A stretch of DNA of 64,000 nt from an uncultured Poribacteria bacterium (GTDB lineage: Bacteria; Poribacteria; WGA-4E; WGA-3G), in assembly GCA_958296135.2 (NCBI GenBank), contig CATQHZ020000001.1, forward strand, positions 4,640,001 through 4,704,000. Direction: 5' to 3'. The position numbers were made by a program, and so were the translations under genes. The notes below the pieces were generated by a model, which had not been told where the DNA came from, did no database searches, and worked only from the letters and a program-made list of their open reading frames with translations. Of the stretch, positions 5,665-61,527 are shown piece after piece. Positions within the stretch are counted from its first letter, which is position 1, and each line of letters opens with the position of its first letter.

Positions 5665-5757
5665 ATTTTCCTCGTTCGCAAGGCGTTCGGATGTGCCGAT
5701 TGGGGCAATTCCCTCTTCCTGCGTATCGCCGCCATCGACGTTGTCGATGACTACGTT
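5665..5757 (-). repeat. AAC-loop hairpin element (type-2 tail)
   Basis: Minus strand GTA-GTCATCGAC-AAC-GTCGATGGC ... AACGCCTTGCGAACGAGGAAAAT-ATG. Confidence 0.75.
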
Positions 5758-5861
5758 CTTGGTGCTAATTGGGTGGAGGTTAGCTCAGATGTGACAGGTT
5801 TTTCGTCACGTTGCCTTTCCTTTAACAGTGCGGTTAAGCACGGCCTGTTTATAGGAATTGT

Positions 5862-5890
5862 ATCATACATGAATTTCTTTGAAATGTCAA
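5862..5890 (-). promoter_or_regulatory. sigma70 promoter for the enolase-family gene
   Basis: TTGACA-N17-TATGAT on the minus strand. Confidence 0.7.
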
Positions 5891-5908
5891 GTCGGCGAGG
5901 AGACAAAA

Positions 5909-7153
5909 TTGGCTATGAATTGCGATGCGAAACTTCAACAATTGAACGGGCTTCTCAATACACATCATCAGTATCGGCAAACCTGCCTCAACCTTATCGC
6001 TTCGGAGAATACGCCTTCGCCGATGGTAGAGGCACTGCTTGACGAACGGCTCGCGCGGCGATACGGGAACTATATCGGCATCGATGTTTATCGGCGGCAC
6101 TACAAAGGCAACCGCCACATCGCCGAGATAGAGGCGTTCACGCACGAGTTAGCGAAAGAGCTCTTCGGCGCGGCTTACGTCGATTTTCGGCCGCTTTCCG
6201 GCAACATCGCGGGACTCGCAGCGACGTTCGCGCTATGCGAACCGGGCGATACACTGCTGGAGGTCAACGATGGACACCGATACGCCTATAAACTGGCATC
6301 ATCTCCGCTGAGGGTAAACCTCAACTCAATTCCGATTCCGTGGGACGGCCCACGTTCAAATATCGCGCTGCCCGAAACGCTTGCGCTCATTGAGAAACAT
6401 CGTCCGAGGGTGGTGAACGTCGGTTCTGGGGTATTTCTCTTTCCGCAGCCGGTTCGGGAATTGAAAACTGCGATGCGGCGCGCCAATCCGGATTCATATC
6501 TCATCTACGATGCGGCGCATGTCATGGGACTTATCGCCGGGGGCAGGTTTCAGTCACCTTTTGATGAAGGCGCGGACATCATCATTTCCAGCACACATAA
6601 AACCCTTGCCGGCCCACAAGGCGGCATGATACTAACCAACGATAACTCCATCGCGGAACGGATAGCGCAGACGCTCTATCCGTTGCTGATGAGCAATCAC
6701 CACCTGAGTCGGCTACCCGCGTTAGCCGGAACGTTCTTAGAGTGGATGGCCTACGGACAAGAACATGCCGATGCCATCGTTGCAAACGCGAAGGCTCTGG
6801 CACAGGCATTGGCACACCGCGGCGTGCCACTTCTCGCCGCCGAACTCGGCTTCACAGCGTCGCATACGTTGATACCGATTGTAGATAGTTATGGCGAAGG
6901 CGGCGAACTCGCCGCGCAACTGGAAACGTGCCATATTATCGCCGGCGCTGCCGGCTTGCCACCGGACGTGGGTACCTCTGGACTCCGACTCGGCGTGCAA
7001 GAGGTAACCCGATGGGGGATGACACCGGCGGATGCACCGGACATTGCAGATTGCATTCTCGCGGCACTCACCGGTGAGAATCCTGACATTGTCAAACCGA
7101 AAGTTGCACAGGTGGCGCGCCGCTTTGATACAGTGCGCTGGACGCTTTTTTAG
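5909..7153 (+). CDS. Serine hydroxymethyltransferase-like PLP enzyme (divergent)
   Basis: Motifs LIASEN, RPLSG, DAAH..GLIAGG, STHKTL.GPQGG (PLP lysine), SGLRLG. SD GAGGAG. Confidence 0.85.
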   Translation: MAMNCDAKLQQLNGLLNTHHQYRQTCLNLIASENTPSPMVEALLDERLARRYGNYIGIDVYRRHYKGNRHIAEIEAFTHELAKELFGAAYVDFRPLSGNIAGLAATFALCEPGDTLLEVNDGHRYAYKLASSPLRVNLNSIPIPWDGPRSNIALPETLALIEKHRPRVVNVGSGVFLFPQPVRELKTAMRRANPDSYLIYDAAHVMGLIAGGRFQSPFDEGADIIISSTHKTLAGPQGGMILTNDNSIAERIAQTLYPLLMSNHHLSRLPALAGTFLEWMAYGQEHADAIVANAKALAQALAHRGVPLLAAELGFTASHTLIPIVDSYGEGGELAAQLETCHIIAGAAGLPPDVGTSGLRLGVQEVTRWGMTPADAPDIADCILAALTGENPDIVKPKVAQVARRFDTVRWTLF

Positions 7154-7187
7154 TGCCGTTAGGCACGACATGTTTATAGGAGGAAAT

Positions 7188-8501: not shown

Positions 8502-8519
8502 CACGCAGCACACACCTTG

Positions 8520-8587: not shown

Positions 8588-8604
8588 AGAGGTAGCATCA
8601 AAAA

Positions 8605-8692
8605 CGTAGTCATTGACAACGTCAATGACGGCCCTAGCAAACAGCCGTGATTGCACGACAAACGCATTGCGACATACAAAAAGGCGGAAAAT
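8605..8692 (+). repeat. AAC-loop hairpin element (type-2 tail)
   Basis: CGTA-GTCATTGAC-AAC-GTCAATGAC-GGCC ... AAACGCATTGCGACATACAAAAAGG, ending at ATG 8693. Confidence 0.8.
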
Positions 8693-10015: not shown

Positions 10016-10084
10016 AGGCGCAACCTGACTCTCGCCAGGCACCAATCTCATCGGAAGACGTTCTCCCGCGCTGCTATCCAAGAC

Positions 10085-11565: not shown

Positions 11566-11575
11566 AAAAAGATGC

Positions 11576-11660
11576 CAGACTTGACAACGTCACGTCTGCC
11601 TAACAAGATAACGTCAGTGACACAGAAACAACTGAACAACCACTAGGAACAACAAAAAAA
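11576..11660 (+). repeat. AAC-loop hairpin element (type-1 tail)
   Basis: CAGACTTGAC-AAC-GTCACGTCTG ... AACAACCACTAGGAACAACAAAAAAA-ATG. Confidence 0.8.
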
Positions 11661-13497: not shown

Positions 13498-14301
13498 ATG
13501 ATTTCCGCAAAAGAGATTCAAGCCACTTGTGATGACATCGTGCGCGAATTCGCACCGCAACAAGTTATCCTCTTCGGTTCCTACGCGTCTGGCACGCCGA
13601 CAGAAAAATCGGATGTCGATCTGCTCATCGTGATGACAGCACTAAAATCGGATACGCGCCAGCAAGCGTGGGAAATGAAAAAACGCATCCCAAATAGGTG
13701 CCGCCTTGACTTGCACGTTCGTTCACCGGAGGAACTGGCGTATCGCGTCTCGCACAACGACTGGTTTCTGCGCGAGATTCTCGAAAAAGGCCACGTGCTT
13801 TATAACACCGAGAATGCAGTGCCCGAATTCGATATCTCAGAAAACGCCCGGGTGCCGATTTGGACGGAGACAGGTGCTATGAACCCGTTGACACTAGAGT
13901 GGGTAGAATTGGCTGAAACCGATTATGATTCGGCAAAGTTGCATCTTCAACATTCATTCAGACGCGCGTCCCATAACAAAATTTGTTTCAACGCACAGCA
14001 GTGTATCGAAAAATACCTGAAAGCGTGGCTACAAGAAGCGAACCTCCCTATTCCGAGGACGCACGATTTGAACGAATTGCTGGATTTGGTTGTGTCGTCG
14101 CAACCCGCGTGGGAGACGTGGAGAACCGACTTTTCCGCGTTTGACAAATATGCGGTGGATGCTCGTTACCCCGGCTATTTCGCGACAGAAGCGGATGCTG
14201 AGCAGGCGGTGCGCATCTGCGACGAGGTGCGCCGAACCGTTCGCGCCCTGCTGGAATTGAGCCAAGAAGTAAGAAATCACAACGTGAATTCGGCCGGATA
14301 G
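13498..14301 (+). CDS. MNT (minimal nucleotidyltransferase)-HEPN fusion
   Basis: LFGSYA...SDVDL in the N-half; AQQCIEKYLKA..RTHDL..ARYPG in the C-half. Strong SD. Confidence 0.88.
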   Translation: MISAKEIQATCDDIVREFAPQQVILFGSYASGTPTEKSDVDLLIVMTALKSDTRQQAWEMKKRIPNRCRLDLHVRSPEELAYRVSHNDWFLREILEKGHVLYNTENAVPEFDISENARVPIWTETGAMNPLTLEWVELAETDYDSAKLHLQHSFRRASHNKICFNAQQCIEKYLKAWLQEANLPIPRTHDLNELLDLVVSSQPAWETWRTDFSAFDKYAVDARYPGYFATEADAEQAVRICDEVRRTVRALLELSQEVRNHNVNSAG

Positions 14302-14319
14302 ATGGACAGTTGTCCCGCC

Positions 14320-14353
14320 AGACGCGTTGAAACACCGCTAGGAAATACAAAAC
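14320..14353 (+). repeat. AAC-loop element, 3' tail only
   Basis: GAAACACCGCTAGGAAATACAAAAC-ATG. Confidence 0.65.
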
Positions 14354-18817: not shown

Positions 18818-18975
18818 ATTAGAATAGATTTGTCCAGATTATCATAAGTTCTAGGGAGCGGTTTTTCTAGTTGAGCATAGAACAAAACAACTAATGCCTT
18901 TAAAACCCCCTTTAGGGGTGCAATATTTATAGTGTTTCAGAATGACACTTTGCGAACGTGGGCATAACAAAAATG

Positions 18976-19209
18976 CAGGACTTGACAATGTCAAGACGGC
19001 CTGGTAAGATTACGTCAGCATTACGTAGGGCGAGGGAAAACCCGGCGCGCGCGAATCGCCGAGGGTTCCCCTCGCCATGCCAAATAACTCCGTGATACCG
19101 TAGCGCGAGGGCCGTTACGCCGAAACTTTGTCATCTCTGCAGCCTCGCTGCAGAGATATCCACTGTCCCTCGCCAAGTTTCCAAACCACCGATAGGAAAT
19201 ACAAAAAAT
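18976..19209 (+). repeat. AAC-loop element split by two nested REP/REPIN inserts
   Basis: CTTGAC-AAT-GTCAAG-ACGGCCTGGTAAGAT, then inserts 19024-19077 and 19119-19173, then tail AAACCACCGATAGGAAATACAAAAAAT-ATG. Confidence 0.75.
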
Positions 19210-20259: not shown

Positions 20260-20562
20260 TAATACCAAATTCATCACTGGAATTCGGCATCGCATGAAGA
20301 TTCAGTAAATAATCGGTTAATTCCGGCCGACAGGCGGATAGAGAAATCCGCCCTTACAGGCAGGTGCGATGGGCGCGTAGACATTGCAGGCGGCCCGGGA
20401 AAATTGCCCGATTTCATTCTGAAACTTCATCTGAGCCCGAACAGGCCAGATCCGGCGAATCTCCACCGTTACGCCTACATCACGCTTGATGGCGTGGTTT
20501 CCCCGCCTCACGCTATCGCACCGATGCCAGAGACGAGAGCAATCAACTTCATTTGGTATAAG
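20260..20562. mobile_element. MITE-like element with ATACCAAAT/ATTTGGTAT termini
   Basis: 9-bp TIR 20262-70/20551-59; right end and the CCGGCGAATCTCCACC motif are shared with 34184-34386. Confidence 0.6.
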
Positions 20563-20616
20563 GGGATGTTGTCTTCACAGTCACAGTTGAACCACCGCTA
20601 GGAACATCAAAAAATA
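20563..20616 (+). repeat. AAC-loop element, 3' half
   Basis: TGTCTTCACAGTCACAGTTGAACCACCGCTAGGAACATCAAAAAA closely matches the 31086-31180 copy. Confidence 0.7.
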
Positions 20617-20656
20617 AAGATTGAAGAATCTTTGGAGAAAAAGAAACTTATTGGGT

Positions 20657-23600
20657 ATGAAAAACATTTTTGTCTCCCTCTGTCTCATCCTTTTGTCAAT
20701 AAGCATCCCGAGGTCTGGGCAGGCACGCGTCACGCAAGTCACGACAACCGAAGGCATCACCCTGAATTTCGCCTTGCCTGAACTCGCGCAGGAAGATGTG
20801 ACATTCGGCAGTATCACTTACCAACAAGCGCAGTACGCGGATTGCGGTTTCATGACAGAACCGGGCAATCCCAAGGTGCCAGTCACGCGCGTGATGCTCG
20901 GTGTGCCACTCGACGTTGCAATCGTGGTGGGTAACGTGTCCGCATCGCCCGCGCGCACGGTTACTGGGGTGCGGCTCCCTCCCGTGCCCGTTCGCGGCGT
21001 GTGGCAGGAGACCGGGGGTGCTTACAGACAGCGTGAACCCTATCCCGCGTCGCCGCTTGCCCGCATTGTGCAGGATGGCATGCTTCGCAGTCAGCGCGTC
21101 GTCATCGTGGAACTCACACCGGTGCAGTATCTCCCACAAGCCCGGCAGCTGCGGACATATTCACAACTCACGGTGCATCTCCGTTTTCAAAGCCAGCCAA
21201 AAACGCAGCAGACAACAACGGCGTATCCAGACCTGGGAAGCAACCGTCACATCCCCGGACAACCTTTACCGAACGCATTGCACCAGACGAAAGAATCTGA
21301 GGCGTATGAACGCGCGTTGGCTCGACAACTGCTGAATGCCCGCGCCGCCGTTCCGTTTCGCGCGCCGCGGATGCAGGGACGGGCGGCAGCACCAGCAGGC
21401 ACCTCGGCTCTTCCCACCCGGCTCCGCTATAAACTCTCCATTGCCGATACGGGTGTCTATGGGTTAACCGGTGAGACGCTGCTGAGCACCTTCGGCATTG
21501 AACTCATCGGAGCAGACCCGGGCACGTTTCAGCTGTGGCACGGTACTCGCGAGGTGCCGCTTTTCATCAGCGGCGCGAGCGACGGTAGGTTCGACGCAGG
21601 CGATGCGCTCTTTTTCCTGGGAAAGCAGACGAAAAATCCCTACACGCCTTGGAACGTTTATTGGCTCACCGTCGAGCCGCGTGGGAAGCAGGCGCGCGTG
21701 CCACTCCGCAACGCCAGCCCCGGCGATGCCACCGCCACGCAAGTCCCCACTTTTCGCTCCACCGTTACCTTTGAGGAAGACAAACTGACGAGCAACCTAG
21801 AGTTTCTCAAGCCAGATGCAGTGACAGACGGCGATAAGCACGCGTGGTTCGATTCCCTCGACTTCTGGTATTGGGACGGTATCAAAAACGGCAGCGATAC
21901 CGGCGAGATGCGCCTTGAATTCCCACTCTACGATGTGGCGAAGAGCTTCGAGCCGCCCCACATTCGCGTCGATTTACAAGGCGGCACACCTGTCAACCAC
22001 GAGATTCTCGTCGCGATTAACGGCGTGCGCATCGACTTCGCCAAATGGGAACAGCAAGACACCCTCACCGTCCAGCGCACGCTCCGCGCATGGGACACCT
22101 TCAAAGACCAGGGCACCGGCACCCACAACGTCCTCTCCCTCGCCCGTGTCGACGATACGTTTGAAGAAGACACGAGACGCTACCCTTATCACGTCTACGT
22201 CAATCGGTTTGTAGTAGAATACACCCGCCTTTTCCACGCCGTTTATGACGAACTCACCTTTTCATCTAAAGGCGTTTCCGAGGAGAACGATGCGCGCACC
22301 GGCAGGAAATTGCAGTATAAAATCCAAAATTTTCGCCACCCGAGCGTGCATATCTTTGAGACAGACGGAGTGCATCTCACGGCGAAGATGGGCGGCGTGG
22401 CCATAGAAGCCACACCCCTCCGCGGCCAGGCACGTCAACGATGGAACAACATTTATCAAGAGACGCACAACGAACGTCTCGCGCCAATACAGAAAACTTA
22501 CACCGCCACCTTTCAGGTGCCCGATACGCCGCAACGTCAGTTCATCGCCATCTCCGAAGACGCGTTACGTCTCCCCACGCGGATAGAAATAGTGCAACCG
22601 AGCAACTTACTGTCCACCGCACACGGTGCCGATTACATTGTCGTCGCGCATGCTACCTTCCAACAGACTGCCCAAAGACTCGCAGACTGGCGCGCGCAAC
22701 CGGCAGGCGGCGGCTACCGAACCAAAGTCGTCACCACCGACGACATTTACAATACCTTCGGCGACGGCAGCGTGCATCCAAAGGCGATAAAAGCGTTCCT
22801 TACGCACGCCTATCACCACTGGACACCGCCCGCGCCAACCTACGTCGTCCTCCTTGGGGATGGAACGTTCGATTTCCGCGGCATCAATACCGAACTCTAT
22901 CCCGAACCGCCGGAACAGATGGGCTACATCCCGACGCACTACATCCACACGGATGCATTCGGGCGAACCGCGGCAGACCACTGGTATGCCACCCTCTCCG
23001 GCCACGATGAATTCACCGATGTTTACCTCGGCCGGATGACTGTGGAAAACACCCGTGAGGCAGATGCCGTTGTCGACAAAATCATCGCCTACGAGCAACG
23101 TCGGCCGAACGGGGCCTGGCGCCGGCGCATCATCTCTGTCGCCGACGATGAAGTCAGCAACTCCGGTGACTTTATCTTCAAAAAGAGCCTCAATGAAATC
23201 GCCAAAAACCACACGCTCCTCGGCTACCAAACCGTAGAGGTGTTTCTAGAAGATGTCATCGACGAGGTAGAGGCACGGCCGGCAGAATTCCCCAACCTGC
23301 TCCCGCAGCGCGTCGCCAAAAACCGCATCATTGACGCACTCAGCGAAGGGGCCATCATCGCACAATACGCCGGACACGGCGGACGCGTCGTCTGGGCACA
23401 CGAAGCGATTTTTGATAACGTCTCCATTGATAAACTTGACGAGACACCGCATACCCCCTTTATGCTCGTGCTGAGCTGCTATAACGGCTATTTTGATGAG
23501 CCGGGTGAGCCAAGCATGGCAGAGAAACTCCTGCGTAAAGAGCGGGGCGGCATCATCGGCATGCTGAGCGCGACGCGACTCACCTACGCCGGCGGAAACG

Positions 23601-26600
23601 ATGCACTCAACCGCATCATCTTCAACATGATTTTTAAACGGAACGTGCGGCAACTCGGGCCGCTCAGCTTCGATTCCAAAGTGGAACTGCTCCTGACAGA
23701 AGGCACAGGCCAAATCGATGTGATGATGGAATACACCCTCTTCGGCGACCCGGCCTTACAGATTGCGACACCCGCCTATGAAATTCGCCCGAAGATCGAG
23801 ACGAAAACGGTCGCGCCCGGCGACACCCTGCAGGTTGCCCCGGGGACTATCGAAAGCGTGCAGTATGACGCGGCCTCCCAGACGAAACGCTTCGCTCCGC
23901 ATACCGGGTTTGACGGCACGCTCACCGTCACCGCACTCTTCCCCGGCAAGACAGCAATTGGACAAGGAACCGCCGGTCCGGTGGAATACTACCCCGGCGA
24001 TGTGGTTGTCACACAAACGTTGCCGGTTAAAGCCGGTGCCTTCCCCGGCGTGAACATCGCTGTCCCCCGGAACATCGCCGCTGGCGACGCGCACGTGGAA
24101 TACTATGCCGAGAACGCCGAAGCACTCGCGGTTGGCGGCGATGGATTCACCGTCAACGTGCCAAAAATTCTCGACATCGCCCCCGAATTGGTAGATACCG
24201 AAACGTTCCGCGTCTCCGTTCAAGTATCTGATGACGAAACGCAACTCGCCGCTGTTGTTTTGGAATGGCGAAATCCGAAAACGCGGCTGTGGGAAGAGGT
24301 GGCACTCACACCACGGGAAAACGAAGAGGGATGGTGGACAGTGCCAGAGCCGCTCCCTGCGCCGACAGATGGCACGGCCATCCGCTACGAAATTCGGGTG
24401 ACAGATACCGACGACAACACCGTCACGACAGACATTTTGCGCTATTACCCGTATCGCACGCCGAACCTCTCGGTAGTACCCGCGTCCGGTAAAGATGTCG
24501 TGCGGTATGGATACGACAGCGTCACGCAGCAGTGGCACCTCTCCGCCGATGTGCAGTGCGAAGGCGATACGCCGTCCACCCCAATCACCGTCGTTTTCTT
24601 CCGCGGCACCCCGGATAAAGACGAAGATTCGCAAATTGATGCAGACGCAGTGCCACTCGGAACAGCCCGCATTGCCCCATCGGATTGGGTGCAGCGCTCT
24701 CCGCTGGGACGTGGGCTAACCCGCGGCGAAGTCTACTCGGAAGATGTGCTCAATATACATCCGATTGCAACCGCGACGCTTGCCCACGAACTTCCCTTCG
24801 GCACACACGACATCTTTGTCGGTGTTGATAGCACCGCGACAGTTCAAGAGAACGACGAGGAAGACAATATCGGCTATCGCCGGATTCCCGCGGATACAGG
24901 ACTCATCGGGCCGCAGTCGGTGCAGATTCGGAGCCTTGATGGGAACGGCCGCCTCACCGCGCCACCCAACGCCCTTGAAACACCCACAGTCGTCGCATTG
25001 AGGCCCATAAACGATGACAGTGCCGTTAAGCAAGGGCTGTTTATAGGGAGGTTACCGCTCCCCGGCGGTGCCATTGCCTACGATATCGTGACAGAACCAG
25101 CAAATAACACAAAGAACGGAGGCATCGACAACATCGATGACAGCTCTACAGGCAGGGACATGACTGCACGAACAACCGTTATCGAACGCCTTGCGCCAGG
25201 ACAAAAAATGACAATTGACCTGGGGTTAGACATGGCGGCACTCCAGCAACAATTAACCAGAGAACTGTTAGGCGGCGAAGAAGCACCACAGGACGGACAG
25301 GAACTTATGCTCGCGACACATTCTGTAGCGGAAGCCGTCGTCACGCGCGCACGCGAAACGGGTGTCTATCTGTGGCACACAGAACTCGGAAAACACTGGA
25401 CGCGACTTGAATCGGTGCCCCTAACCGATGCATCCGGAAATCTCATCGAACGGATGCAGGTGACAGATGTGTCTGAAACGAATACCGGTGAAGGCGGTGT
25501 GCGCGATGTCCGCATCCACCCCGATGGCGCTCGCGTAGGGAAATGGGTGCTCTTTTTTACCGGACCGCGCACTTATCGCGTGCTGCTAGCACCGACAGAC
25601 AGCAAAGTCCCTGCAGACGAGAGTCCCAGTTCCCTGCAGTTGCCGCCAGTAGAAACAGTTGCGACATCGCGTCCCCTCACCCCCTTTAATCCCGCGTATC
25701 TCAACTTCACAGACGGACTCTCGCTGCACATTGAATCCGATGCCGCAAAGCCGTTCGCCTTCGGCGATACCTTGACGTTCCGCATCACGCAACTAGACGA
25801 CTCAGACGCGGGCGGCCGCGATGCAACGAATCCTACCTCCCGGTGGTACGCCTCCTCCTTCCGGCATAGCAATGAAGGGAGCGGCACGGTGAGCTACATT
25901 CATCTTGAACCCAACGCAACGATAGGAGCAGAACGGTGGGTGCTCTTTTTCGTCTCAGCAAGCAAGTTCCAGATTGAAGGCGAACAACACGGGCTGTTGC
26001 GCGGTGAAGACGGCGCGCCACTCCGAGGCACGAGCGGTGTGCCGTTTGAATCCCCCAATGGGCTCAGCCTCTTACTGACAGAGGGGCAACGTCCCTTTAC
26101 CGCTGGCGATACGTTCCGTTTTGAAACCCGCAGCGTCGCAACGATTCGCGCAACAACAGCGTTCCTCGGTCCCGTGACGCTTTTGCACAGCGACGACACC
26201 GTGCCACCGGATATCCAACTAACTCTCACGTCGCAGCAGCACTTCGTAACAGGCGATGCGACAGATGCAGCACCACTCATCGGCGCGACGTTGACAGACG
26301 CAAGCGGCGTGGATTTCGTGACACGCCCAGTGACGCTGGCACTCGGCGATGCCGCCGGCACATATCAACCGATTGCTACCGATGCATATCAACTGACGCA
26401 TGCACAGGGCTCAAACCAACTCATTTTGACATATCCATCGCCAGCACTGCAGCCGGGCGAATACGCCATTCGGCTGACAGCGAGCGATGTGCATGGAAAC
26501 ACTGCGGATGCGCGCATCGATTTTCATGTCTACGGCACGGTGCAGCTGGTCTCCTTTCTGAACTACCCCAACCCGTTCGCGCGAGAGACAACCCTGTGTT

Positions 26601-26833
26601 GTGAACTGACAGCACCGGCGGATGAACTCGAAGTAAAAATCTATACGTTGAGCGGAAGGCTTATCCGCACCCTGGAGACGTTGCCGACAGCCGGATTTAT
26701 CATGCTTGACTGGGATGGCAGGGATGCTGAGGGTGTCGAAGTCGCCAACGGTGTCTACTTCGCGAAGATTCGGATTGCGCGCGAAGGCGAAAAAGAGATT
26801 ACCGACATTTTGAAGATGATGAAACTAAAATAA
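20657..26833 (+). CDS. Peptidase C25 (gingipain/PorU-like) with propeptide and C-terminal FlgD-Ig/T9SS-CTD-like domain
   Basis: Propeptide (G.P.VP), YVVLLGDG, catalytic GHGG and SCYNG, YTLFGDPAL; C-terminal NYPNPF..IYTLSGRLI..WDGRD..NGVYF. Confidence 0.9.
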   Translation: MKNIFVSLCLILLSISIPRSGQARVTQVTTTEGITLNFALPELAQEDVTFGSITYQQAQYADCGFMTEPGNPKVPVTRVMLGVPLDVAIVVGNVSASPARTVTGVRLPPVPVRGVWQETGGAYRQREPYPASPLARIVQDGMLRSQRVVIVELTPVQYLPQARQLRTYSQLTVHLRFQSQPKTQQTTTAYPDLGSNRHIPGQPLPNALHQTKESEAYERALARQLLNARAAVPFRAPRMQGRAAAPAGTSALPTRLRYKLSIADTGVYGLTGETLLSTFGIELIGADPGTFQLWHGTREVPLFISGASDGRFDAGDALFFLGKQTKNPYTPWNVYWLTVEPRGKQARVPLRNASPGDATATQVPTFRSTVTFEEDKLTSNLEFLKPDAVTDGDKHAWFDSLDFWYWDGIKNGSDTGEMRLEFPLYDVAKSFEPPHIRVDLQGGTPVNHEILVAINGVRIDFAKWEQQDTLTVQRTLRAWDTFKDQGTGTHNVLSLARVDDTFEEDTRRYPYHVYVNRFVVEYTRLFHAVYDELTFSSKGVSEENDARTGRKLQYKIQNFRHPSVHIFETDGVHLTAKMGGVAIEATPLRGQARQRWNNIYQETHNERLAPIQKTYTATFQVPDTPQRQFIAISEDALRLPTRIEIVQPSNLLSTAHGADYIVVAHATFQQTAQRLADWRAQPAGGGYRTKVVTTDDIYNTFGDGSVHPKAIKAFLTHAYHHWTPPAPTYVVLLGDGTFDFRGINTELYPEPPEQMGYIPTHYIHTDAFGRTAADHWYATLSGHDEFTDVYLGRMTVENTREADAVVDKIIAYEQRRPNGAWRRRIISVADDEVSNSGDFIFKKSLNEIAKNHTLLGYQTVEVFLEDVIDEVEARPAEFPNLLPQRVAKNRIIDALSEGAIIAQYAGHGGRVVWAHEAIFDNVSIDKLDETPHTPFMLVLSCYNGYFDEPGEPSMAEKLLRKERGGIIGMLSATRLTYAGGNDALNRIIFNMIFKRNVRQLGPLSFDSKVELLLTEGTGQIDVMMEYTLFGDPALQIATPAYEIRPKIETKTVAPGDTLQVAPGTIESVQYDAASQTKRFAPHTGFDGTLTVTALFPGKTAIGQGTAGPVEYYPGDVVVTQTLPVKAGAFPGVNIAVPRNIAAGDAHVEYYAENAEALAVGGDGFTVNVPKILDIAPELVDTETFRVSVQVSDDETQLAAVVLEWRNPKTRLWEEVALTPRENEEGWWTVPEPLPAPTDGTAIRYEIRVTDTDDNTVTTDILRYYPYRTPNLSVVPASGKDVVRYGYDSVTQQWHLSADVQCEGDTPSTPITVVFFRGTPDKDEDSQIDADAVPLGTARIAPSDWVQRSPLGRGLTRGEVYSEDVLNIHPIATATLAHELPFGTHDIFVGVDSTATVQENDEEDNIGYRRIPADTGLIGPQSVQIRSLDGNGRLTAPPNALETPTVVALRPINDDSAVKQGLFIGRLPLPGGAIAYDIVTEPANNTKNGGIDNIDDSSTGRDMTARTTVIERLAPGQKMTIDLGLDMAALQQQLTRELLGGEEAPQDGQELMLATHSVAEAVVTRARETGVYLWHTELGKHWTRLESVPLTDASGNLIERMQVTDVSETNTGEGGVRDVRIHPDGARVGKWVLFFTGPRTYRVLLAPTDSKVPADESPSSLQLPPVETVATSRPLTPFNPAYLNFTDGLSLHIESDAAKPFAFGDTLTFRITQLDDSDAGGRDATNPTSRWYASSFRHSNEGSGTVSYIHLEPNATIGAERWVLFFVSASKFQIEGEQHGLLRGEDGAPLRGTSGVPFESPNGLSLLLTEGQRPFTAGDTFRFETRSVATIRATTAFLGPVTLLHSDDTVPPDIQLTLTSQQHFVTGDATDAAPLIGATLTDASGVDFVTRPVTLALGDAAGTYQPIATDAYQLTHAQGSNQLILTYPSPALQPGEYAIRLTASDVHGNTADARIDFHVYGTVQLVSFLNYPNPFARETTLCCELTAPADELEVKIYTLSGRLIRTLETLPTAGFIMLDWDGRDAEGVEVANGVYFAKIRIAREGEKEITDILKMMKLK

Positions 26834-26925
26834 TTTCGTACTGGCGCAAAGCGTTCGGATACGGCGGTTGGTGCAATAACATGCCTTGACGTAACCCGTC
26901 ATCGACGTTGGCCATGACTACGTCC
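26834..26925 (-). repeat. AAC-loop element, decayed and not upstream of a co-oriented gene
   Basis: GTA-GTCATGGCC-AAC-GTCGATGAC (2 mismatches) ... CCGAACGCTTTGCG. Confidence 0.6.
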
Positions 26926-27010
26926 TTCATGCTATTTAAATATAGGTTGGGCCCGCCTGAGCCCAACTGCAATGTTTATAGCACTGAAAACGCACGGAGA
27001 AGTAGTATTT

Positions 27011-28030
27011 ATGCAGAAAACGTTCATTTCCCAGGGCGCATTGACGTTGTCAAGTTTTGTATTCTTGTTGATAACGCTTGTGTGCGCGGGCACAGTGCAG
27101 GCGAAATACACCGCGGATTTCTTGAGTCTCGGTGTGGGCGCGCGTGCGTTAGGCATGGGCGGCACCGGCACAGCGACAACAAACAACGCAGCCGCTATCT
27201 ATTGGAATCCGGCAGGCATGGGACATCAGTATGCCCTCCATGAAGTCAGCATGATGCGTTCAACGCTGAGCGGCTTGGCGGCGTATACGTTCGTGAGTTA
27301 CAACCATCCGGTCAGCGATACAAGCGCGCTCGGCATCAGTTGGCTTCGTGTCGGCGTAGACGCTATCCCGATTACGGGGCTTTCAGTAGCAAGCAAACCC
27401 GTCGGGCCGACGAACCGGCCGAAGGTTATCGGCACGTTCAGCACCACGCAGAACGCGGTGTTGCTTGCCGGTGGGTGGAAACTTCCATCGCTATCGCGAT
27501 TCTCCTTCCGGCTCGGTGGCACGCTGAAACTGCTCTATATCGACAGTTATCGGAATACAAACGCTATCGGGGGCGGCGGGGATATCGGTTTCCTGATGAC
27601 GTATCGGCAGCGGGTTACCCTCGGTATTCGAGCGTCTGACATTTTCACGACGAAGTTGTATTGGAACACGCCGCCGGCGACAGCAGGTGAAACGCCGCAC
27701 ACGGAGACGCTTTTGCCGCACGTCACCTTCGGCATTGCGGCAACGCAGCCACTCCCGTTTCTGGACAGCAGATTGACGCTGGCGTGCGATGTCTACACAC
27801 AGCACGGCCCTGAACTTCACGCGGGTGCTGAACTGACGCTCTTTGAACTGCTTGCATTGCGCATCGGGATGGACGGACGTAACGGCATTGAGCGATGGAT
27901 GCAAGTCACAGCGGGTGTCGGTTTGCAGCTGCGGTTTGTGACAGGTGCCGCCGCCGCGGTGGATTATGCGTGGACGAACCACGCCGCACTCGGTGGCAGC
28001 CATCGCATGGGATTTCGGATGGGATTTTAA
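27011..28030 (+). CDS. PorV/PorQ-family (FadL-like) outer-membrane beta-barrel
   Basis: Motif FL.LGVGARALGMG...A.YWNPAG; C-terminal DYA..H..LG.SH and terminal Phe. Confidence 0.88.
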   Translation: MQKTFISQGALTLSSFVFLLITLVCAGTVQAKYTADFLSLGVGARALGMGGTGTATTNNAAAIYWNPAGMGHQYALHEVSMMRSTLSGLAAYTFVSYNHPVSDTSALGISWLRVGVDAIPITGLSVASKPVGPTNRPKVIGTFSTTQNAVLLAGGWKLPSLSRFSFRLGGTLKLLYIDSYRNTNAIGGGGDIGFLMTYRQRVTLGIRASDIFTTKLYWNTPPATAGETPHTETLLPHVTFGIAATQPLPFLDSRLTLACDVYTQHGPELHAGAELTLFELLALRIGMDGRNGIERWMQVTAGVGLQLRFVTGAAAAVDYAWTNHAALGGSHRMGFRMGF

Positions 28031-31085: not shown

Positions 31086-31180
31086 AAATGCTCCTTTTTT
31101 GTTGTTCCTCGCGGTGGTTCAGCAGTGTCTGTGAAGACAGTGTCCACTTACCAGGCCGTCTTGACGTTGTCAAGACTTGC
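31086..31180 (-). repeat. AAC-loop hairpin element (type-1 tail; best-conserved copy)
   Basis: GTCTTGAC-AAC-GTCAAGAC-GGCCTGGTAAG ... AACCACCGCGAGGAACAACAAAAAAGGAG..ATG. Confidence 0.85.
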
Positions 31181-31298
31181 AGACCTGTTGGGGCTTGCCT
31201 GAGCCGGACGGTTCAAGATCAGGCGAGTGCTACCTACAATAGCAAAGGAAATGAACCTAACTGAGTATTATCCGGTCCGCGTCTATCTTAAGATATAT

Positions 31299-36833: not shown

Positions 36834-36934
36834 GGTTCCTCCGCACCGCCAGAAGCGGCGGACGCACTAGCCAAGATTGTGCGGCCAGAAAGGAACCCTG
36901 GGATTCTCTTGCTTCTTCGTTGAAATACCAAGAC

Positions 36935-37023
36935 TATAAGCATTGACAACGTCAATGCACCCCAACAAGACAACCCCTGATGAACAAACGCAGCCAAACA
37001 ACGCATTGCGAAAAACAAAAAAA
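36935..37023 (+). repeat. AAC-loop element (type-2 tail) overlapping a CDS start
   Basis: GCATTGAC-AAC-GTCAATGC ... AAACAACGCATTGCGAAAAACAAAAAA. Confidence 0.8.
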
Positions 37024-41335: not shown

Positions 41336-41409
41336 ATTGTAAGGAGAACTCACGCAACCGTTGTCTTGCTAAGACACACTCGGGTTCTGTACGACAAAAA
41401 ATCGGAACC

Positions 41410-41756
41410 CTAAGCATTGATAACGTGACAAGCCAACGTCACCTTGCCAGTGGCAGCCAAAACACCGCGAGGAAGAACAAAAGATGGCATACAATTTGCT
41501 TATATACTTTTATGAGATGCTCCTATGGCCCGCTCAGGAAAATGCAAAAAAGAAACTTAAGTCTTGACAACAGGCACGTCTATCAAGACGGGCGAACGAA
41601 GGTAGGTTTTCCTGCTGATGCGAGGAAACCTTCTTTGTGGCGGCGTGACCGGTGTCGGATTAACTGACTACTGTGAAGACAGCCTGATAAGGCAACGTCT
41701 TCTGCCAATCGGGAGTTAAACAATGCCTTGCGGACGACAGAAAAAGGAGAACTACC
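41410..41756 (+). repeat. Three consecutive AAC-loop-family elements upstream of the TonB receptor
   Basis: 41410-41484 (type-1 tail); 41559-41592 (GTCTTGA..TCAAGAC); 41660-41756 (GTGAAGACAGCCTGATAAG..type-2 tail, SD, ATG). Confidence 0.7.
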
Positions 41757-44750: not shown

Positions 44751-44839
44751 TTTTTGTTATTGCGCAAATCGTTCGTTCGTGGTTTCTGGTGTGAGAACGT
44801 TTCTTCGCGTAAGCCGTCATCGCCGTTAACGATGACAGC
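44751..44839 (-). repeat. AAC-loop element (type-2 tail) abutting the coaD ATG
   Basis: GCTGTCATCGTT-AAC-GGCGATGACGGC (3 G.T/U pairs) ... AACGATTTGCGCAATAACAAAAA-ATG. Confidence 0.75.
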
Positions 44840-44944
44840 ATTTTTTTGCAGAGAGAACTCGTAGGCGCGGTTTGACAATATCACGCAGGAAGCGAAAAAT
44901 GTCCAGCAGATGCGTTCATACCGATGTTGAACAGCCGCGCCTGC

Positions 44945-45183
44945 AATTCAACTGTGAAGACGGCCTGCTAAAGCAACGTCCGCTGCCAAGTGGCAACTAA
45001 ACCACCGCTAGTCACAACAAAAAAGCGATTTTGAAATAGGATACCACAAGATAAAACGTAATGCAAGTTCTTCTTGCTGTTTTACAGAAACGAAAGTCTT
45101 GACAACGGTCGCGTCTGTGAAGACGGCCTGCTAACCCCCCTGCACAGACGCAGCTGAACGACGCATTGCGAAATATAAAAAAC
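44945..45183 (+). repeat. Two tandem AAC-loop-family elements
   Basis: 44945-45024 (GTGAAGACGGCCTGCTAA..AACCACCGCTAG..CAAAAAA) and 45093-45183 (GTCTTGACAAC..GAAGACGGCC..CGCATTGCG). Confidence 0.75.
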
Positions 45184-45247
45184 TTGTATTTTAAATGCAC
45201 ATTATGCTAGAATGATGCTATCACATATCAGGGAGGAAAACTAGAGA

Positions 45248-45968: not shown

Positions 45969-46631
45969 ATGAAACCGACAATCACTAATATCCGGGTTCT
46001 GCAAGAACCGCACGCACATTGCGAACTCTTTCTGAACGGTGAACCGTTTGTCGTTATTCATGCCGAACTGATTGTCAAATTTGGGTTGCGCGTCGGCTTA
46101 GCAATCGAAACCCAGGTTATCGAGAAGTTAATCGCCGCTGACGAAGTGATGCGCGCCAAAAACCACGCGATAAATCTGATCCGCGAGGAAGAAGGCACCT
46201 CCCGGGTCAGAAGCAAACGTGACATTGCGCAACTTCTTGAACAAGAAGGGTTTGACACGGAAGCTGTTGAAACCGCCATCGCGGAATTGATACGTTCCCG
46301 GCATATCCGCGACCGGAAATTCGCGGAGAACTGGGTGCGCCGCCGGCAAAAATCAAATCCACGCGGGAAAACCGTGCTGAAGCGCGAACTTGTCGACAAG
46401 GGCGTTGACAAGGAAACCGCTGAAAAGGTTGTGGCAGAGGTAGAAACCGAAGACGAGATGGCACTCGCAGTTCAGTTGGCGCGAAAACGGGCGAAGCACT
46501 ATCAACGCCTACCGCTGCCTACAGCAAAGCGGCGTTTATACGGGTTTTTGGCGCGCCGCGGGTTTAACTCTGAAACCATCCGGCAGGTGCTTGAGCAGGT
46601 TTTTGAAAATGAAAAGGTTAAGACAGACTGA
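45969..46631 (+). CDS. recX: Regulatory protein RecX
   Basis: Motifs RS..DI, I.D..FA..W, G...LK.EL..KGV, L.GFL.RRGF. Lies upstream of alaS. Confidence 0.85.
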   Translation: MKPTITNIRVLQEPHAHCELFLNGEPFVVIHAELIVKFGLRVGLAIETQVIEKLIAADEVMRAKNHAINLIREEEGTSRVRSKRDIAQLLEQEGFDTEAVETAIAELIRSRHIRDRKFAENWVRRRQKSNPRGKTVLKRELVDKGVDKETAEKVVAEVETEDEMALAVQLARKRAKHYQRLPLPTAKRRLYGFLARRGFNSETIRQVLEQVFENEKVKTD

Positions 46632-46680
46632 TAAGTCAACGCCAGATGCGAAGTGGCAGTTGAATAACGCATTAAATTGA
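46617..46680 (+). repeat. AAC-loop-family element remnant supplying the recX stop codon
   Basis: GTTAAGACAGACTGATAAGTCAACG..GCGAAGTGGCAGTTGAATAACGCATT aligns with the 41670 and 61443 copies. Confidence 0.6.
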
Positions 46681-46709: not shown

Positions 46710-46738
46710 TTGACAAGTTTGTAAAAATAAGATATAAT
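46710..46738 (+). promoter_or_regulatory. Consensus sigma70 promoter of alaS
   Basis: TTGACA-N17-TATAAT. Confidence 0.85.
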
Positions 46739-49522: not shown

Positions 49523-49598
49523 CGTAGGGCGAGGGCCATCACACCGAAACGCTGACATCTCTGCAGCCTCGCTGCAGAGATGAACACTGTCCCTCGCC
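49523..49598 (+). repeat. REPIN-like element
   Basis: CGTAGGGCGAGGGCC..TCTCTGCAGCCTCGCTGCAGAGA..CCCTCGCC. Confidence 0.8.
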
Positions 49599-49624
49599 AT
49601 ACCAAACCAATGCTAGGAGAAGTT

Positions 49625-52570: not shown

Positions 52571-52632
52571 CTTGACTTTAAATTGCAAATTTGATACAAT
52601 ACGTCTTGAGTTTACACCCCTTGGCCAAGCCC

Positions 52633-52736
52633 TGCAAGAAAAGACAACGTCTTTTCGGCCTGCTAAGTTGCAGCCTTGCCGCCAAGACAACGTCAGACTA
52701 CCGCTAGGAACAACAAAAAAGGAAGGAGGCACCCCT
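52633..52736 (+). repeat. AAC-loop element (type-1 tail) with a fully compensated stem
   Basis: GAAAAGAC-AAC-GTCTTTTC-GGCCTGCTAAGTT ... ACCGCTAGGAACAACAAAAAAGGAAGGAGG..TTG. Confidence 0.8.
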
Positions 52737-57255: not shown

Positions 57256-57267
57256 CCGGCCCATCTC

Positions 57268-59292: not shown

Positions 59293-60439
59293 GGGTGTTC
59301 TCCTCCACATGTTTTTGAATGCTTTGCCCGATAACGGTTGCAAGTCTGACAGGTACCGCGTTCCCGATGTGAATACCTAATTGCGTGATTCTCACCGGAA
59401 CCCTCGGCTCAAGAAAGTCGTAATCTTCTGGGAATGTTTGCAGCAGCGCGCCTTCTCGGATTGAAAGTGCGCGGTCTTGCTCAGGATGCCCGAATCGTCC
59501 ACTACCGAAGTTATGAAACTGCGTTGTTATCGTCGGGCCGGGTTTATCCCATTCCATACGTCCATAAACCGAAGTGTAAGTTTCTCCCGACGGCTTTTGG
59601 TGGCATGGCGCGCGTAGCTGCACATCCCAATCTTTCCATGTGCCACCCGGTTTTGACTGCTTAATTCGTGCCTGATTCTTAGCCTTAAACCTTCTTGCGC
59701 GATGGAGCGAGTCGGTTTCAGACACTTCCCCGGCGGCGATTGGGGGCAAGTCATCTATGGTTTCCCGGACCGTCGGACAGGGGGGCAACCTTTCATAATC
59801 TTCTGTTTGTAGAAGCGATGTCTCGCCTGCGCAGCCCAATGTGGCGCGCAAATGCGTTTTCGGGATAAGCGAAATCTCTCCCAAAGTGGAAGCAAGCAGC
59901 ACGAGACGACGACGCTTTTGCGGAACGCCATAGTCGGGACAGTAGACCAGCACTTGATAAACGGAATACTTGAGAAATTTAAGTTTACCAATGAAATCGG
60001 CAAAAATGTCTTCCTTTCTGATAGGCGTGACATTCTCAAAGGCGACAATTTCGGGCCGGACTTCCTCAATTAAACGTCCGAAGTCGTTGAGTAAGCCCCA
60101 CTTATCATCTTGACGTTGGTCTTTGTGTTTCCGGTATTTCCGCGTATGCACTGAAAACGGCTGGCATGGCGCGCATCCAACGAGCAGTTTGACATCACCC
60201 GATGGGTATAGGGAAGAAAGTTCAGGTCCCTCAAATTTGCGAATATCTTTTTCAATAAACGTCGCCGCATTGTTTTTCTCAAAGGCATAACGGCACGTCG
60301 GGTCGACATCAAGGCCCGCGAGCACTTTTATGCCCGATTGCTGAAGTCCATGTGTCAGGCCACCAACGCCGCAAAACAGATCCACGGCGGATATGGAGAC
60401 GGATGTGTTCCGTTTTTGCAATGCGCTCATAGCGGTCAC
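59285..60439 (-). CDS. dcm: C5-cytosine DNA methyltransferase
   Basis: Motifs DLFCGVGG, APCQPFS, ENV, Q.RRR, R.LS.RE..LQ.F, IGNAVP. Confidence 0.93.
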   Translation of the reverse strand: MTAMSALQKRNTSVSISAVDLFCGVGGLTHGLQQSGIKVLAGLDVDPTCRYAFEKNNAATFIEKDIRKFEGPELSSLYPSGDVKLLVGCAPCQPFSVHTRKYRKHKDQRQDDKWGLLNDFGRLIEEVRPEIVAFENVTPIRKEDIFADFIGKLKFLKYSVYQVLVYCPDYGVPQKRRRLVLLASTLGEISLIPKTHLRATLGCAGETSLLQTEDYERLPPCPTVRETIDDLPPIAAGEVSETDSLHRARRFKAKNQARIKQSKPGGTWKDWDVQLRAPCHQKPSGETYTSVYGRMEWDKPGPTITTQFHNFGSGRFGHPEQDRALSIREGALLQTFPEDYDFLEPRVPVRITQLGIHIGNAVPVRLATVIGQSIQKHVEENTHG

Positions 60440-60483
60440 CGTTGACAGAATGTGCTAATTCAGGAGTCAATCCATAATCATTA

Positions 60484-60512
60484 ATTATAGCACAAAAAGC
60501 AAAAATTGTCAA
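60484..60512 (-). promoter_or_regulatory. Consensus extended sigma70 promoter of the MTase
   Basis: TTGACA-N17-TATAAT with TG. Confidence 0.85.
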
Positions 60513-60539
60513 AAATTGTTTTTCAATCAACACAGCGCG

Positions 60540-61442
60540 CTAGAGGATAGAACGCAGATACGCCAAATTCCGCGCAGCACTCTCCCGAGGGCTACCCATC
60601 CCCGGCAACACATCCTGCTCCACAACGATCCAACCGTCGTAATTTTGCGCTCGCAACGCAGCGATGACAGCCGGAAAATCTACATCGCCTTGCCCAAGCT
60701 CGCAGAAAACCCCGGTGCCGACAGACGCAAAGTAATCCCACTCCTCTGCACGAGAACACGCCGCAATACCTGGATGGCAGTCTTTGAAATGGACATGCCA
60801 GATGCGTTCCGCATAACGAGCGTAGAGGTCCAGCGGATCTCCGCCGCCGAACCGATAATGTCCAGTATCAAAACATAAGCCGACTAGGTCCGGATCGGTG
60901 CTTTGCATCAGCCGGTCCACCTCCGCCGGTGTCTCTATGTAACCTGCGCAGTGTGGATGAAAAACGGTGCTGAGTCCGGTCTTCTCTTGCACTATCTCTG
61001 CGATATAATGCACGCCATGCACGAAAATCGCCCACTCCTCCGAGGTTAATCCGTGTTCAGGCCGGATCCGCCCGGCGTTGTGGGTGCGCAAGGCAGAGGT
61101 GCCGTTATCATCTGAAAGCACGATGAAGGGACCCCGCGGGTGATAGCCCTCAACTTGGGCTAACAGCCTCGCATACCGCAGGGCCTCCGCCGCGCCGTTG
61201 TCATGAAAACGTGGATCGGCGAGGGAAACCCCCACGAAGGCACCTAACAGTGACAACTCGCGCGCTTGGAGCTCGTCGTGCAAGCGCGCCGAATTCGTCG
61301 GCATAAACCCCCAGTCGCCTAATTCGGTGCCTGCGTAACCGATAGCTTGCATCTCGTCTAATACCTGCATGTAGCCGGGGGATTCACCGGCCAAATCAAA
61401 CTCAAGGACTCCCCATGAACAGGGAGCGTTCGCGATTTTCAT
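60540..61442 (-). CDS. iolE: IolE-like myo-inosose-2 dehydratase (TIM barrel)
   Basis: Motifs AP.SWG, GY.GTELG, FHPH, DTGH, HVHFKD, LG.GDVDF, W.VVEQD. Confidence 0.75.
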   Translation of the reverse strand: MKIANAPCSWGVLEFDLAGESPGYMQVLDEMQAIGYAGTELGDWGFMPTNSARLHDELQARELSLLGAFVGVSLADPRFHDNGAAEALRYARLLAQVEGYHPRGPFIVLSDDNGTSALRTHNAGRIRPEHGLTSEEWAIFVHGVHYIAEIVQEKTGLSTVFHPHCAGYIETPAEVDRLMQSTDPDLVGLCFDTGHYRFGGGDPLDLYARYAERIWHVHFKDCHPGIAACSRAEEWDYFASVGTGVFCELGQGDVDFPAVIAALRAQNYDGWIVVEQDVLPGMGSPRESAARNLAYLRSIL

Positions 61443-61527
61443 TTTTTGTTGTTCCTAGCGGTGGTTTGGCAGCCACTTGGCAGCGGACGTTGTCTTGTCA
61501 GGCCGTCTTCACAGGAGTCAGTCAAGC
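61443..61527 (-). repeat. AAC-loop-family element (type-1 tail) abutting the ATG
   Basis: GTGAAGACGGCCTGACAAGACAACGTCC..AAACCACCGCTAGGAACAACAAAAA-ATG. Confidence 0.8.

Follow-up and report, generated by a model that had tools for sequence, protein, structure and literature searches.

Within a stretch of 64,000 nucleotides from an uncultured Poribacteria bacterium (positions 4640001-4704000 of contig C1 in genome G000, which comprises 5.19 Mb in four contigs), hereafter the window, a short dispersed element recurs that begins with a hairpin capped by an AAC loop and often ends at the start codon of a gene. With about even confidence, we consider this AAC-loop element to be a lineage-specific, non-autonomous dispersed repeat that would be transcribed as a 5' untranslated region (5' UTR) or intercistronic leader and would supply a hairpin and an A-rich start region to the gene behind it. 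The comparisons reported here establish its anatomy and copy number, its bias in orientation and position, its covariation, its confinement to one genus and its turnover at orthologous sites. In the mechanism that we propose, the element would reside behind ordinary promoters of the sigma-70 type, within 5' UTRs, and also between co-directional genes. In sense orientation it would form a portable leader made of a stable 8-9 bp AAC-loop hairpin, a tail motif and an A-rich tract, the latter reaching the start codon and presumably replacing the normal Shine-Dalgarno site. The A-rich end could drive Shine-Dalgarno-poor initiation, and the hairpin may work in the RNA as a stability, processing or protein-binding element.

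A hidden Markov model (HMM) was built from 17 window copies and iterated over the genome in three rounds. The first model gave 197 matches at E<0.01 and the iterated one 277 at E<=0.01, 242 at E<=1e-3 and 170 at E<=1e-6, all of them on contig C1. A genome scan for copy number had been proposed in an earlier, sequence-only reading of the window, and it yields 242 copies at E<=1e-3. The covariance model called for in the same reading was built from eight window copies, with nine hairpin pairs set by hand, and run on the window and on twenty 20-kb stretches; it recovers the family with strong covariation in the stem and aligned 108 copies from this genome. Seventeen of the 18 or so copies that had been noticed in the window came back as significant matches of the HMM or the covariance model. 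The other, at about 41559 on the plus strand, is visible by eye as a head fragment with an interrupted loop and has no model match of its own. The models added two copies on the plus strand (21204-21293 and 25110-25207) and a partial one on the minus strand (26975-27061). The GGCCTGNTAAG box was found seven times with at most one mismatch, against 2.12 expected, and seven occurrences were reached in none of 100 shuffles. Contigs C2-C4 (176 kb) contain no copy, with about nine expected at the density of C1; these contigs may be plasmids, phage or foreign DNA.

The element is built from a short conserved 5' flank, the hairpin, a variable middle, one of two tails and an A-rich run. The single layout read earlier from the sequence needs correction, since the family is modular with two head and two tail types. 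Head type A has an 8-bp hairpin, e.g. GTCTTGAC-AAC-GTCAAGAC, followed by GGCCTGNTAAG; head type B has a 9-bp hairpin, e.g. GTAG-TCATCGAC-AAC-GTCGATGA-CGG. The GTAG that had been noted at the foot of the stem belongs to type B only (most copies, CGTAG-TCATCGAC...), whereas type A has G[CT]AAG. The two tails (..CCGCTAGGAAC.. or ..GAACGCNTTGCGAA..) carry the conserved motif A-A-C-G-C-N-T-T-G-C-G-A-A or C-C-G-C-T-A-G-G-A-A. In a clean subset of 77 copies, head A occurs with tail 2 in 19 and with tail 1 in 16, and head B with tail 2 in 40 and with tail 1 in two. Similarity between distant copies starts about 5-15 nt before the flank of the stem and ends with the A-run, at or just before the ATG, giving a unit of about 95-105 nt. 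The 5' ends (..AGAAACGTAG / ..ACATGCAAG) and 3' ends (..AACAACAAAAA) of the aligned copies are not complementary, i.e. there are no terminal inverted repeats. The middle, described earlier as variable over about 25 nt, is not a general second hairpin (mean z score -0.39, 13% of copies below -2), and this candidate was dropped, RNAalifold predicting hairpin 1 only. A mini-hairpin CGC-NTT-GCG in the tail was also dropped as structure, for it is invariant (368 of 387 cells paired versus 366 in shuffles) apart from one orthologous CAC/GTG swap; we count it as a sequence motif. Over about 100 nt, distant copies are at most 89% identical to one another. The copies are thus old with no recent burst visible, and recent transposition was rejected on the same ground.

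The covarying hairpin with an AAC loop, a central claim of the sequence-only reading, is strongly borne out. In the 108 copies from this genome, 86.3% of the stem cells are paired versus 61.2% after shuffling, two-sided changes amount to 186 cells versus 60.3 in shuffles, and the covariation score is 0.460 versus 0.130, a value matched by none of 500 shuffles; sliding the partner by one to three columns gives at most 0.12. Among 80 copies from two sister genomes, 96.9% of the cells are paired versus 72.1%, with a score of 0.516 versus 0.120. Both alignments were fitted by a model that rewards pairing and the sequences are related, so that these figures overstate independence. The constraint on pairing is nevertheless clear, because many types of stem keep it: TTGAC/GTCAA, TCGAC/GTCGA, TCGCC/GGCGA, TCAAC/GTTGA, TTCAC/GTGAA and AAAAGAC/GTCTTTT. 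The loop reads AAC in 134 of 173 copies. At orthologous sites, copies in three species show two compensatory swaps of stem pairs and one in the tail (set c), another pair shows two G-U wobbles on the sense strand (set d), and the loop has changed from AAC to GTT in set f; sets b and g show decay. The loop at G000:C1:541848 is GTT where the G002 locus L049 has AAC, with identical arms, the centre of the palindrome having been flipped. In the RNA folds predicted for eight copies, the hairpin forms in six and the last 15-25 nt are unpaired in seven (z from -4.77 to +1.24).

Position relative to genes was assessed both without annotation and on a home-made gene map derived from open reading frames (ORFs) and codon scores, which is not curated and makes the statistics based on it crude. 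Without the map, 91 of 232 copies have the start codon of an ORF of at least 100 amino acids (ATG in 79 cases) within -12 to +15 nt of their 3' end, compared with 24 of 232 when looking backward from the 5' end and 355 of 2000 random positions. The docking on co-oriented starts of unrelated genes that had been proposed is therefore real. Pfam matches show how unrelated the docked window genes are: enolase superfamily, NCS2, WD40, MORN, zinc dehydrogenase, C25, sulfite reductase, FG-GAP/ASPIC, TonB receptor, CoaD-like, ThuA, FtsX and TIM-barrel isomerase. On the map, the downstream neighbour of the 242 copies is co-oriented in 163 cases and convergent in 43; 29 copies lie within an apparently co-oriented long ORF, some of these placements stemming from spurious ORF extension, five lie inside an antisense ORF and two overlap one. 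Between co-directional genes there are 162 sense and 37 antisense copies, so that orientation, for which a check had been suggested, is not random. The whole gap is filled in 26 of 138 co-oriented cases (stop at most 30 nt upstream, start at most 15 nt downstream). For antisense copies, it is the stop codon of the facing gene that the A-rich end abuts, within a few nucleotides in about 25 of 37. Independently of the map, 25 of 232 copies have an antisense ORF of at least 100 amino acids that ends within -8 to +10 nt of their A-rich end, the corresponding numbers being 14 of 165 for the hairpin end and 61 of 3000 for random positions; a sense start codon falls in the same interval of the A-rich end in 77 of 232. 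In this assembly, GC skew is weak and noisy, and so is the strand bias of the genes.

The copies and pieces in the window are as follows, with covariance-model (CM) scores in bits or nhmmer E-values.

5666..5762, minus strand: full copy, head B (GTAG foot) and tail 2, CM 81.1 bits; the ATG of an enolase-superfamily gene (4312-5664) lies 1 nt from its 3' end.
8598..8682, plus strand: full copy, type B, tail 2, CM 78.2 bits; an NCS2-type permease gene starts about 10 nt further on.
11566..11658, plus strand: full copy, type A, tail 1, CM 80.3 bits; occupies the whole gap from a stop at 11565 to the ATG at 11661 of a WD40 gene.
14262..14353, plus strand: degenerate type A copy, tail 1, CM 37.3 bits; ends at the ATG at 14354 of a MORN-repeat gene.
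18970..19028, plus strand: head half only (hairpin and GGCCTGGTAAG box), nhmmer model positions 2-60, E 2.5e-9.
19180..19209, plus strand: tail-1 piece, repeat family D11, ending at the ATG at 19210.
20559..20618, plus strand: tail half, nhmmer model positions 37-97, E 8.9e-9; just before a 2070-aa C25 peptidase ORF.
21204..21293, plus strand: degenerate copy, in frame within the C25 peptidase ORF, nhmmer E 1.6e-5; G002 has a copy at the same place.
25110..25207, plus strand: type B copy, in frame within the C25 peptidase ORF, CM 49.2 bits; an in-frame ATG follows the A-tract.
26833..26929, minus strand: full type B copy, antisense, CM 75.8 bits; its A-rich end touches the stop of the plus-strand C25 gene.
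26975..27061, minus strand: partial copy, model positions 5-56, nhmmer E 7.8e-5.
31096..31188, minus strand: full type A copy, tail 1, CM 77.8 bits; the ATG of a sulfite/nitrite reductase gene follows after 10 nt.
36928..37021, plus strand: full type A copy, tail 2, CM 77.5 bits; upstream of an FG-GAP/ASPIC gene.
41409..41489, plus strand: copy with a broken 3' arm, tail 1, then ATG, nhmmer E 3.3e-10.
41559..41600, plus strand: head fragment (5' arm and start of loop), seen by eye; inserted DNA splits it off from the copy at 41657.
41657..41743, plus strand: copy with an interrupted head, tail 2, nhmmer E 3.7e-8; the ATG of a TonB-dependent receptor gene follows after 13 nt.
44751..44847, minus strand: full type B-like copy, CM 85.1 bits; 3' end at the ATG of a CoaD-like cytidylyltransferase gene.
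44938..45023, plus strand: copy without 5' arm, tail 1, nhmmer E 2.4e-5.
45084..45181, plus strand: copy with extra loop bases, tail 2, CM 39.1 bits; 66 nt before a ThuA-like gene.
46608..46674, plus strand: degenerate copy, nhmmer E 2.5e-9; upstream of the alaS consensus promoter.
52626..52719, plus strand: full type A copy, tail 1, CM 68 bits; upstream of an FtsX-like permease gene.
61443..61543, minus strand: copy with an interrupted head, tail 1, CM 33.4 bits; ends at the ATG of a xylose-isomerase-like TIM-barrel gene.

Ten window copies lie 0-13 nt from a co-oriented start. The gene at 19210 on the plus strand, a zinc-type dehydrogenase (QOR-like) according to Pfam, is indeed docked, as had been claimed, but by the separated tail 19180-19209 and not by the head at 18976. 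This tail belongs with the head at 18974, and inserted repetitive extragenic palindromic (REP) sequences now separate the two, one example of REPs that insert into AAC-loop elements. The copy 44751..44847 has the lowest fold z score (-4.77). The 2070-aa ORF at 20621-26833 on the plus strand contains Propeptide_C25, Peptidase_C25 and a C-terminal FlgD_ig domain; it also holds, in frame, a tail-only piece at about 22447-22500. G002 has an open frame of 2169 codons for the C25 gene and a full copy at the counterpart of that piece.

Comparison with the syntenic region of the sister genome G002 (window 1306 to 35235) shows how much occupancy differs. This part of the window holds about 12 copies or pieces by the models, and G002 four by the HMM. 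Three places are common to both (5666 on the minus strand, 20559 and 21204 on the plus strand); at 5666 the subfamilies differ (set a), and at 20559 G002 has a full copy. Its counterparts of 11566..11658 and 26833..26929 are devoid of the element, that of 8598..8682, which here has a REP just upstream, keeps the tail motif without the head, and that of 14262..14353 has REP arrays. The sulfite reductase gene shows a further form of difference: here the element is placed between a promoter at 31327-31299 on the minus strand (9/12 matches) and the Shine-Dalgarno site, and G002 keeps the same promoter and Shine-Dalgarno site with the element absent. Conversely, 28 high-scoring G002 sites, a sample biased to the best-preserved copies, correspond in this genome to a copy in the same orientation in eight cases, to one in opposite orientation in four and to no match at E<=0.01 in 16. 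At L067, the operon joint reads TAA-AA-ATG here, where G002 holds about 550 nt of REPs plus three tandem elements ending at the ATG; L072 has an insert of about 235 nt with two tandem copies. Nine filled/empty comparisons gave no clean target-site duplication; flanks are about 15-20% diverged and repeats or tail remnants are often present at the 'empty' site, the 'empty' genome keeping a tail-like 13-20 nt before the ATG at several sites (L052, L040 and the plus-strand site at 8605). The mobile character that had been suggested is consistent with these changes of occupancy between species of the genus. In G001, two loci syntenic with the window are much denser in elements (L057 on contig C142, eight copies in 11 kb; L058 on contig C100, 15 in 16 kb) and include back-to-back pairs with touching hairpin ends.

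The family is abundant in this genus only. All three genomes of the genus gave about 90-102 model matches each, scoring being capped at 102 per genome. In the sister genus, three of nine genomes gave one or two matches, and none was found in 29 other relatives. A phylum sample of 150 genomes, with 27 candidates scored in each, gave one to six weak matches in 22 of 57 genomes of the sister genus, none in 38 genomes of another genus of the family and none in 54 genomes across 19 further genera. The weak copies of the sister genus have the same build.

The element is probably transcribed, since promoters are positioned upstream of it and terminator features are lacking. Promoter positions rest here on matches to the sigma-70 consensus only. 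The organism does use canonical promoters of this type, because a perfect TTGACA-N17-TATAAT (12/12) stands upstream of alaS at 46710-46738 on the plus strand, downstream of the copy at 46608. Where the gene upstream is divergent (27 copies), a sigma-70-like site scores best upstream of the element in 21 cases (16 of them strong), within it in four and downstream of it in two. Strong sites there exceed the background density about tenfold (11 in 6,318 nt versus 0.177 per kb). A separate promoter scan found sites upstream of four window copies; candidate sites in front of window copies include 5890-5862 on the minus strand (11/12) for 5666..5762, 44872-44900 on the plus strand (10/12) directly before 44938..45023, and 52572-52600 on the plus strand (10/12 with TG) about 25 nt before 52626..52719. 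Tail-only copies dock too, one of them in a 5' UTR behind a TTGACA-N17-TACAAT promoter. On the sense strand, a T-run follows the stem in none of 132 copies, so that the element should not terminate transcription. An antisense terminator was considered and rejected: the head on the reverse strand with the upstream A-run looks terminator-like in one window copy, and genome-wide there is no relevant enrichment (31 of 105 sense and five of 19 antisense copies have a T-run behind the stem on the reverse strand). Sigma-54 and extracytoplasmic function (ECF)-type promoter readings of middle and tail gave, by eye, no consistent fit to the consensus spacings and were dropped.

Regarding initiation, the anti-Shine-Dalgarno sequence of the organism is canonical, and on the crude map GGAG or GAGG stands no more than 20 nt from the start in roughly half of the genes. 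The A-rich docked leaders are therefore atypical for this organism: tail 2 has no Shine-Dalgarno-like core and tail 1 has AGGA only. From the AGG of tail 1 to the start there are 9-13 nt in 20 of 37 copies, and from the GCG of tail 2 there are 10-13 nt in 32 of 163. The sequence-only reading had left two modes of action side by side, a cis-acting RNA and a single-stranded DNA (ssDNA) substrate of an HUH nuclease. The former fits best, with canonical promoters lying upstream, and the latter is unsupported.

Several points weigh against a transcribed leader of this kind. Docking on start codons concerns about 40% of the copies only, while 37 are antisense and about 34 lie within long ORFs on the crude map; all map-based position figures depend on the ORF and codon-score annotation rather than on a curated one. 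A role in translation cannot explain why the A-rich end of antisense copies sits at stop codons. A clean stem of at least 5 bp is missing in 41 of 173 copies, so that many copies may be decaying neutrally. The CGC/GCG mini-stem of the tail never varies in the alignment and hence gives structure no support. Finally, mismatches in the five inner pairs are GT/TG in 37 cases and AC/CA in 33, i.e. there is no clear RNA signature; this G-U versus A-C asymmetry, tried as a test of RNA against DNA, is uninformative. The near equality would also suit a selfish repeat acting at the DNA level, of the REP, MITE (miniature inverted-repeat transposable element) or PATE (palindrome-associated transposable element) kind, whose hairpin would serve its own copying as ssDNA or cruciform, and whose docking would reflect target choice or spacer deletion with no role in expression of the neighbour. 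We regard this as possible, if on the unlikely side. Expansion within one genus and high turnover agree with it, the latter illustrated by the 16 G002 sites without counterpart and the four in opposite orientation, and so do the occupation of one orthologous site by different subfamilies, tandem arrays of two to four copies, the loop inversion of set f, the nesting of other repeats in loop and middle, and the A-rich ends at stop codons. However, no cognate transposase was found, the ends are not mutual inverted repeats, the filled/empty comparisons show no clean target duplication, and distant copies above 89% identity are missing. Moreover, the 162:37 sense bias combined with sharp spacing to the ATG is hard to obtain without selection on expression, and the stems of orthologous copies have changed in a compensatory manner. 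The A-rich end, unlike the hairpin end, shows a preference for coding borders; it may have been placed there from the outset, or superfluous spacer beside it may have disappeared over time. If its placement is target choice and not later trimming, copying that reads gene boundaries would follow. That the element homes in this way to exact borders of coding sequences, swapping in Shine-Dalgarno-free leaders and rewiring starts across the genus, is a speculation that we judge clearly unlikely.

Mobilisation by an HUH enzyme of the REP-associated tyrosine transposase (RAYT) type, the GTAG foot and hairpin being cut and copied as ssDNA like REPs, is the least probable reading, very improbable in our judgement, even though GTAG stands directly 5' of the stem in most type B heads and action in trans is conceivable. 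The search for RAYT genes that had been suggested did find two RAYT-like Y1_Tnp (Pfam) loci, G000:C1:3734478-3734807 (L001) and 4791155-4791397 (L002), both on the minus strand, neither of them cognate. Each is flanked on both sides by arrays of its own, different GTAG REP family with stems and sequences unlike the AAC-loop hairpin, and both are more than 15 kb from any AAC-loop element; the two loci are classical REPtrons. Type A heads lack GTAG, and a unit of about 95 nt with a conserved non-palindromic tail and one-orientation placement 5' of genes is unlike REPs or bacterial interspersed mosaic elements (BIMEs). As to a PATE derived from IS200/IS605, only the two REP-flanked Y1 genes are present, and the 3' mini-stem is invariant, without structural support. 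A portable promoter cassette, with TTGACA (5' arm plus loop) as -35 box, an extended TGnTAAGnn as -10 box 17 nt downstream in the GGCCTGNTAAG box and transcription starting within the element, seems quite improbable to us. The TTGACA-N14-TGn-TAAGnn spacing of head A suits sigma-70 geometry, 13 promoter-like matches fall at element positions +30 to +39 where about 3.5 per bin are expected, and one copy is near consensus (TTGACA..TAAATT). Yet only 13 of 242 copies pass, the sixth -10 base being usually C or G and rarely T; in type B heads the corresponding bases are TCGACA and the spacer is longer by about 2 nt, and stems AAAAGAC, TCGCC and TTCAC lose the -35 box while retaining pairing. Canonical promoters stand upstream of 21 of the 27 test copies, and many copies lie at most 30 nt from an upstream stop, in apparent operons. 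It is improbable, too, though a little less so, that the element is a shared RNA or DNA operator for one lineage-specific binding protein, at least 100 docked genes forming one regulon. Conservation of the sequence itself covers the loop with its closing pairs (GAC-AAC-GTC) as well as the tail motif, and Neisseria REP2 offers a precedent (PMC3184786) for linking such repeats to co-regulation. Against a single regulon, the docked genes are functionally unrelated, sister species differ strongly in which genes are occupied, and no candidate protein was identified.

That the family is undescribed, as had been supposed, agrees with Rfam 15, which gave no match at gathering score over the window. 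At E<=1 there was none on the elements in 44700-45250 or in four sister-genome loci, apart from one 12-bit chance match outside the element. Literature searches on repetitive, intergenic or palindromic elements of Poribacteria listed nothing on such repeats. By its properties, the AAC-loop element appears to belong to a rare type of movable gene-leader module of which examples are already known. REP2 repeats of Neisseria are reportedly the contact-regulated upstream repeats of Morelle et al. 2003. Compared by description, REP2 and the Borrelia plasmid repeats IR-A and IR-B are the closest known kind described in the review by Delihas (2011, PMC3184786). There, they are described as lacking terminal inverted repeats, as lying immediately 5' of ORFs, with 5' stem-loops, and as carrying promoter, ribosome binding site and ATG; REP2 measures 120-150 bp in 23-26 copies, fourteen of which mark one co-regulated gene set. 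Judged by that account, the AAC-loop element resembles them in being dispersed directly upstream of unrelated ORFs, in its stem-loop near the 5' end, in its lack of terminal inverted repeats and in holding 5'-UTR sequence and translation start region. It departs from the account in its roughly 240 copies of about 95 nt, about ten times more than REP2, in that an internal promoter is not consistently present in most copies and a Shine-Dalgarno sequence is mostly missing, and in its modular build, its antisense and in-ORF copies and its strong turnover between species.

Other families share some traits. A REP unit is a palindrome of about 20-40 nt, typically found 3' of genes or in inverted clusters; BOX elements have a boxA-B-C build, and Rickettsia palindromic elements (RPEs) insert in frame in genes. 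With REPs and BIMEs the element has in common a short hairpin with pairing kept as the sequence varies, high copy number, nesting of other repeats and, for head type B only, the GTAG foot. It differs in having no cognate RAYT, a unit three times longer, a conserved non-palindromic tail and a preferred orientation 5' of genes. As for the families treated in PMC3184786, Correia elements and other MITEs are likewise non-coding repeats of about 100 bp, often 5' of genes and co-transcribed, that can alter expression and whose locations vary between close relatives; compared with that description, the ends of our element are not inverted repeats, and neither a TA or other clean target duplication nor a related insertion sequence was found. 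The pneumococcal BOX, named in the same review, has a similarly modular head, middle and tail, partial and tandem forms and an intergenic location near gene starts. Its sequence is unrelated, and the 3' module of the AAC-loop element docks on the start codon at a fixed spacing. RPEs, also listed there, recall the few copies in frame within a long ORF, kept in two species; such copies are exceptional here (two or three in the one gene examined), most being intergenic. By the tests applied, the element is neither a REPtron member nor a MITE.

True REPs are numerous in this genome, the 12-mers GTAGCGCGAGGG and GTAGGGCGAGGG occurring 548 and 352 times on C1. In the window, REPs with a GTAG foot lie at 19021-19175, 41260-41336 and 49523-49599. 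Some GTAG REPs carry a 27-nt inner hairpin (CATCTCTGCAG..CTGCAGAGATG) in their loop, this nested REP being family D14. At 41130-41285, three units of a 45-nt tandem repeat contain a GC-rich palindrome and CCTAC, with a single copy at 61552-61593 beside the element at 61443; it looks like another REP family. Two pairs of neighbouring genes (7032-8501/8651-10015 and 38704-39354/39466-40116) are paralogous, 72-76% identical over 300-nt stretches; in the first pair the second gene has the leader element and the first has none. Three tandem 102-nt repeats, the later units 84% and 72% identical to the first, lie at 55215-55588 within the ORF 54171-55766.

The family is unannotated, causes errors in start codons and ORF extension in gene calls, and marks one genus of Poribacteria. 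If the AAC-loop element is a leader as we propose, about 5% of the genes in these uncultured sponge-associated bacteria would receive their leader and start region from a movable module, which sister species would have plugged into different genes. This would provide a natural experiment on the exchange of gene-start signals and the domestication of intergenic repeats, and also on Shine-Dalgarno-poor initiation in a genome that otherwise uses Shine-Dalgarno sequences.

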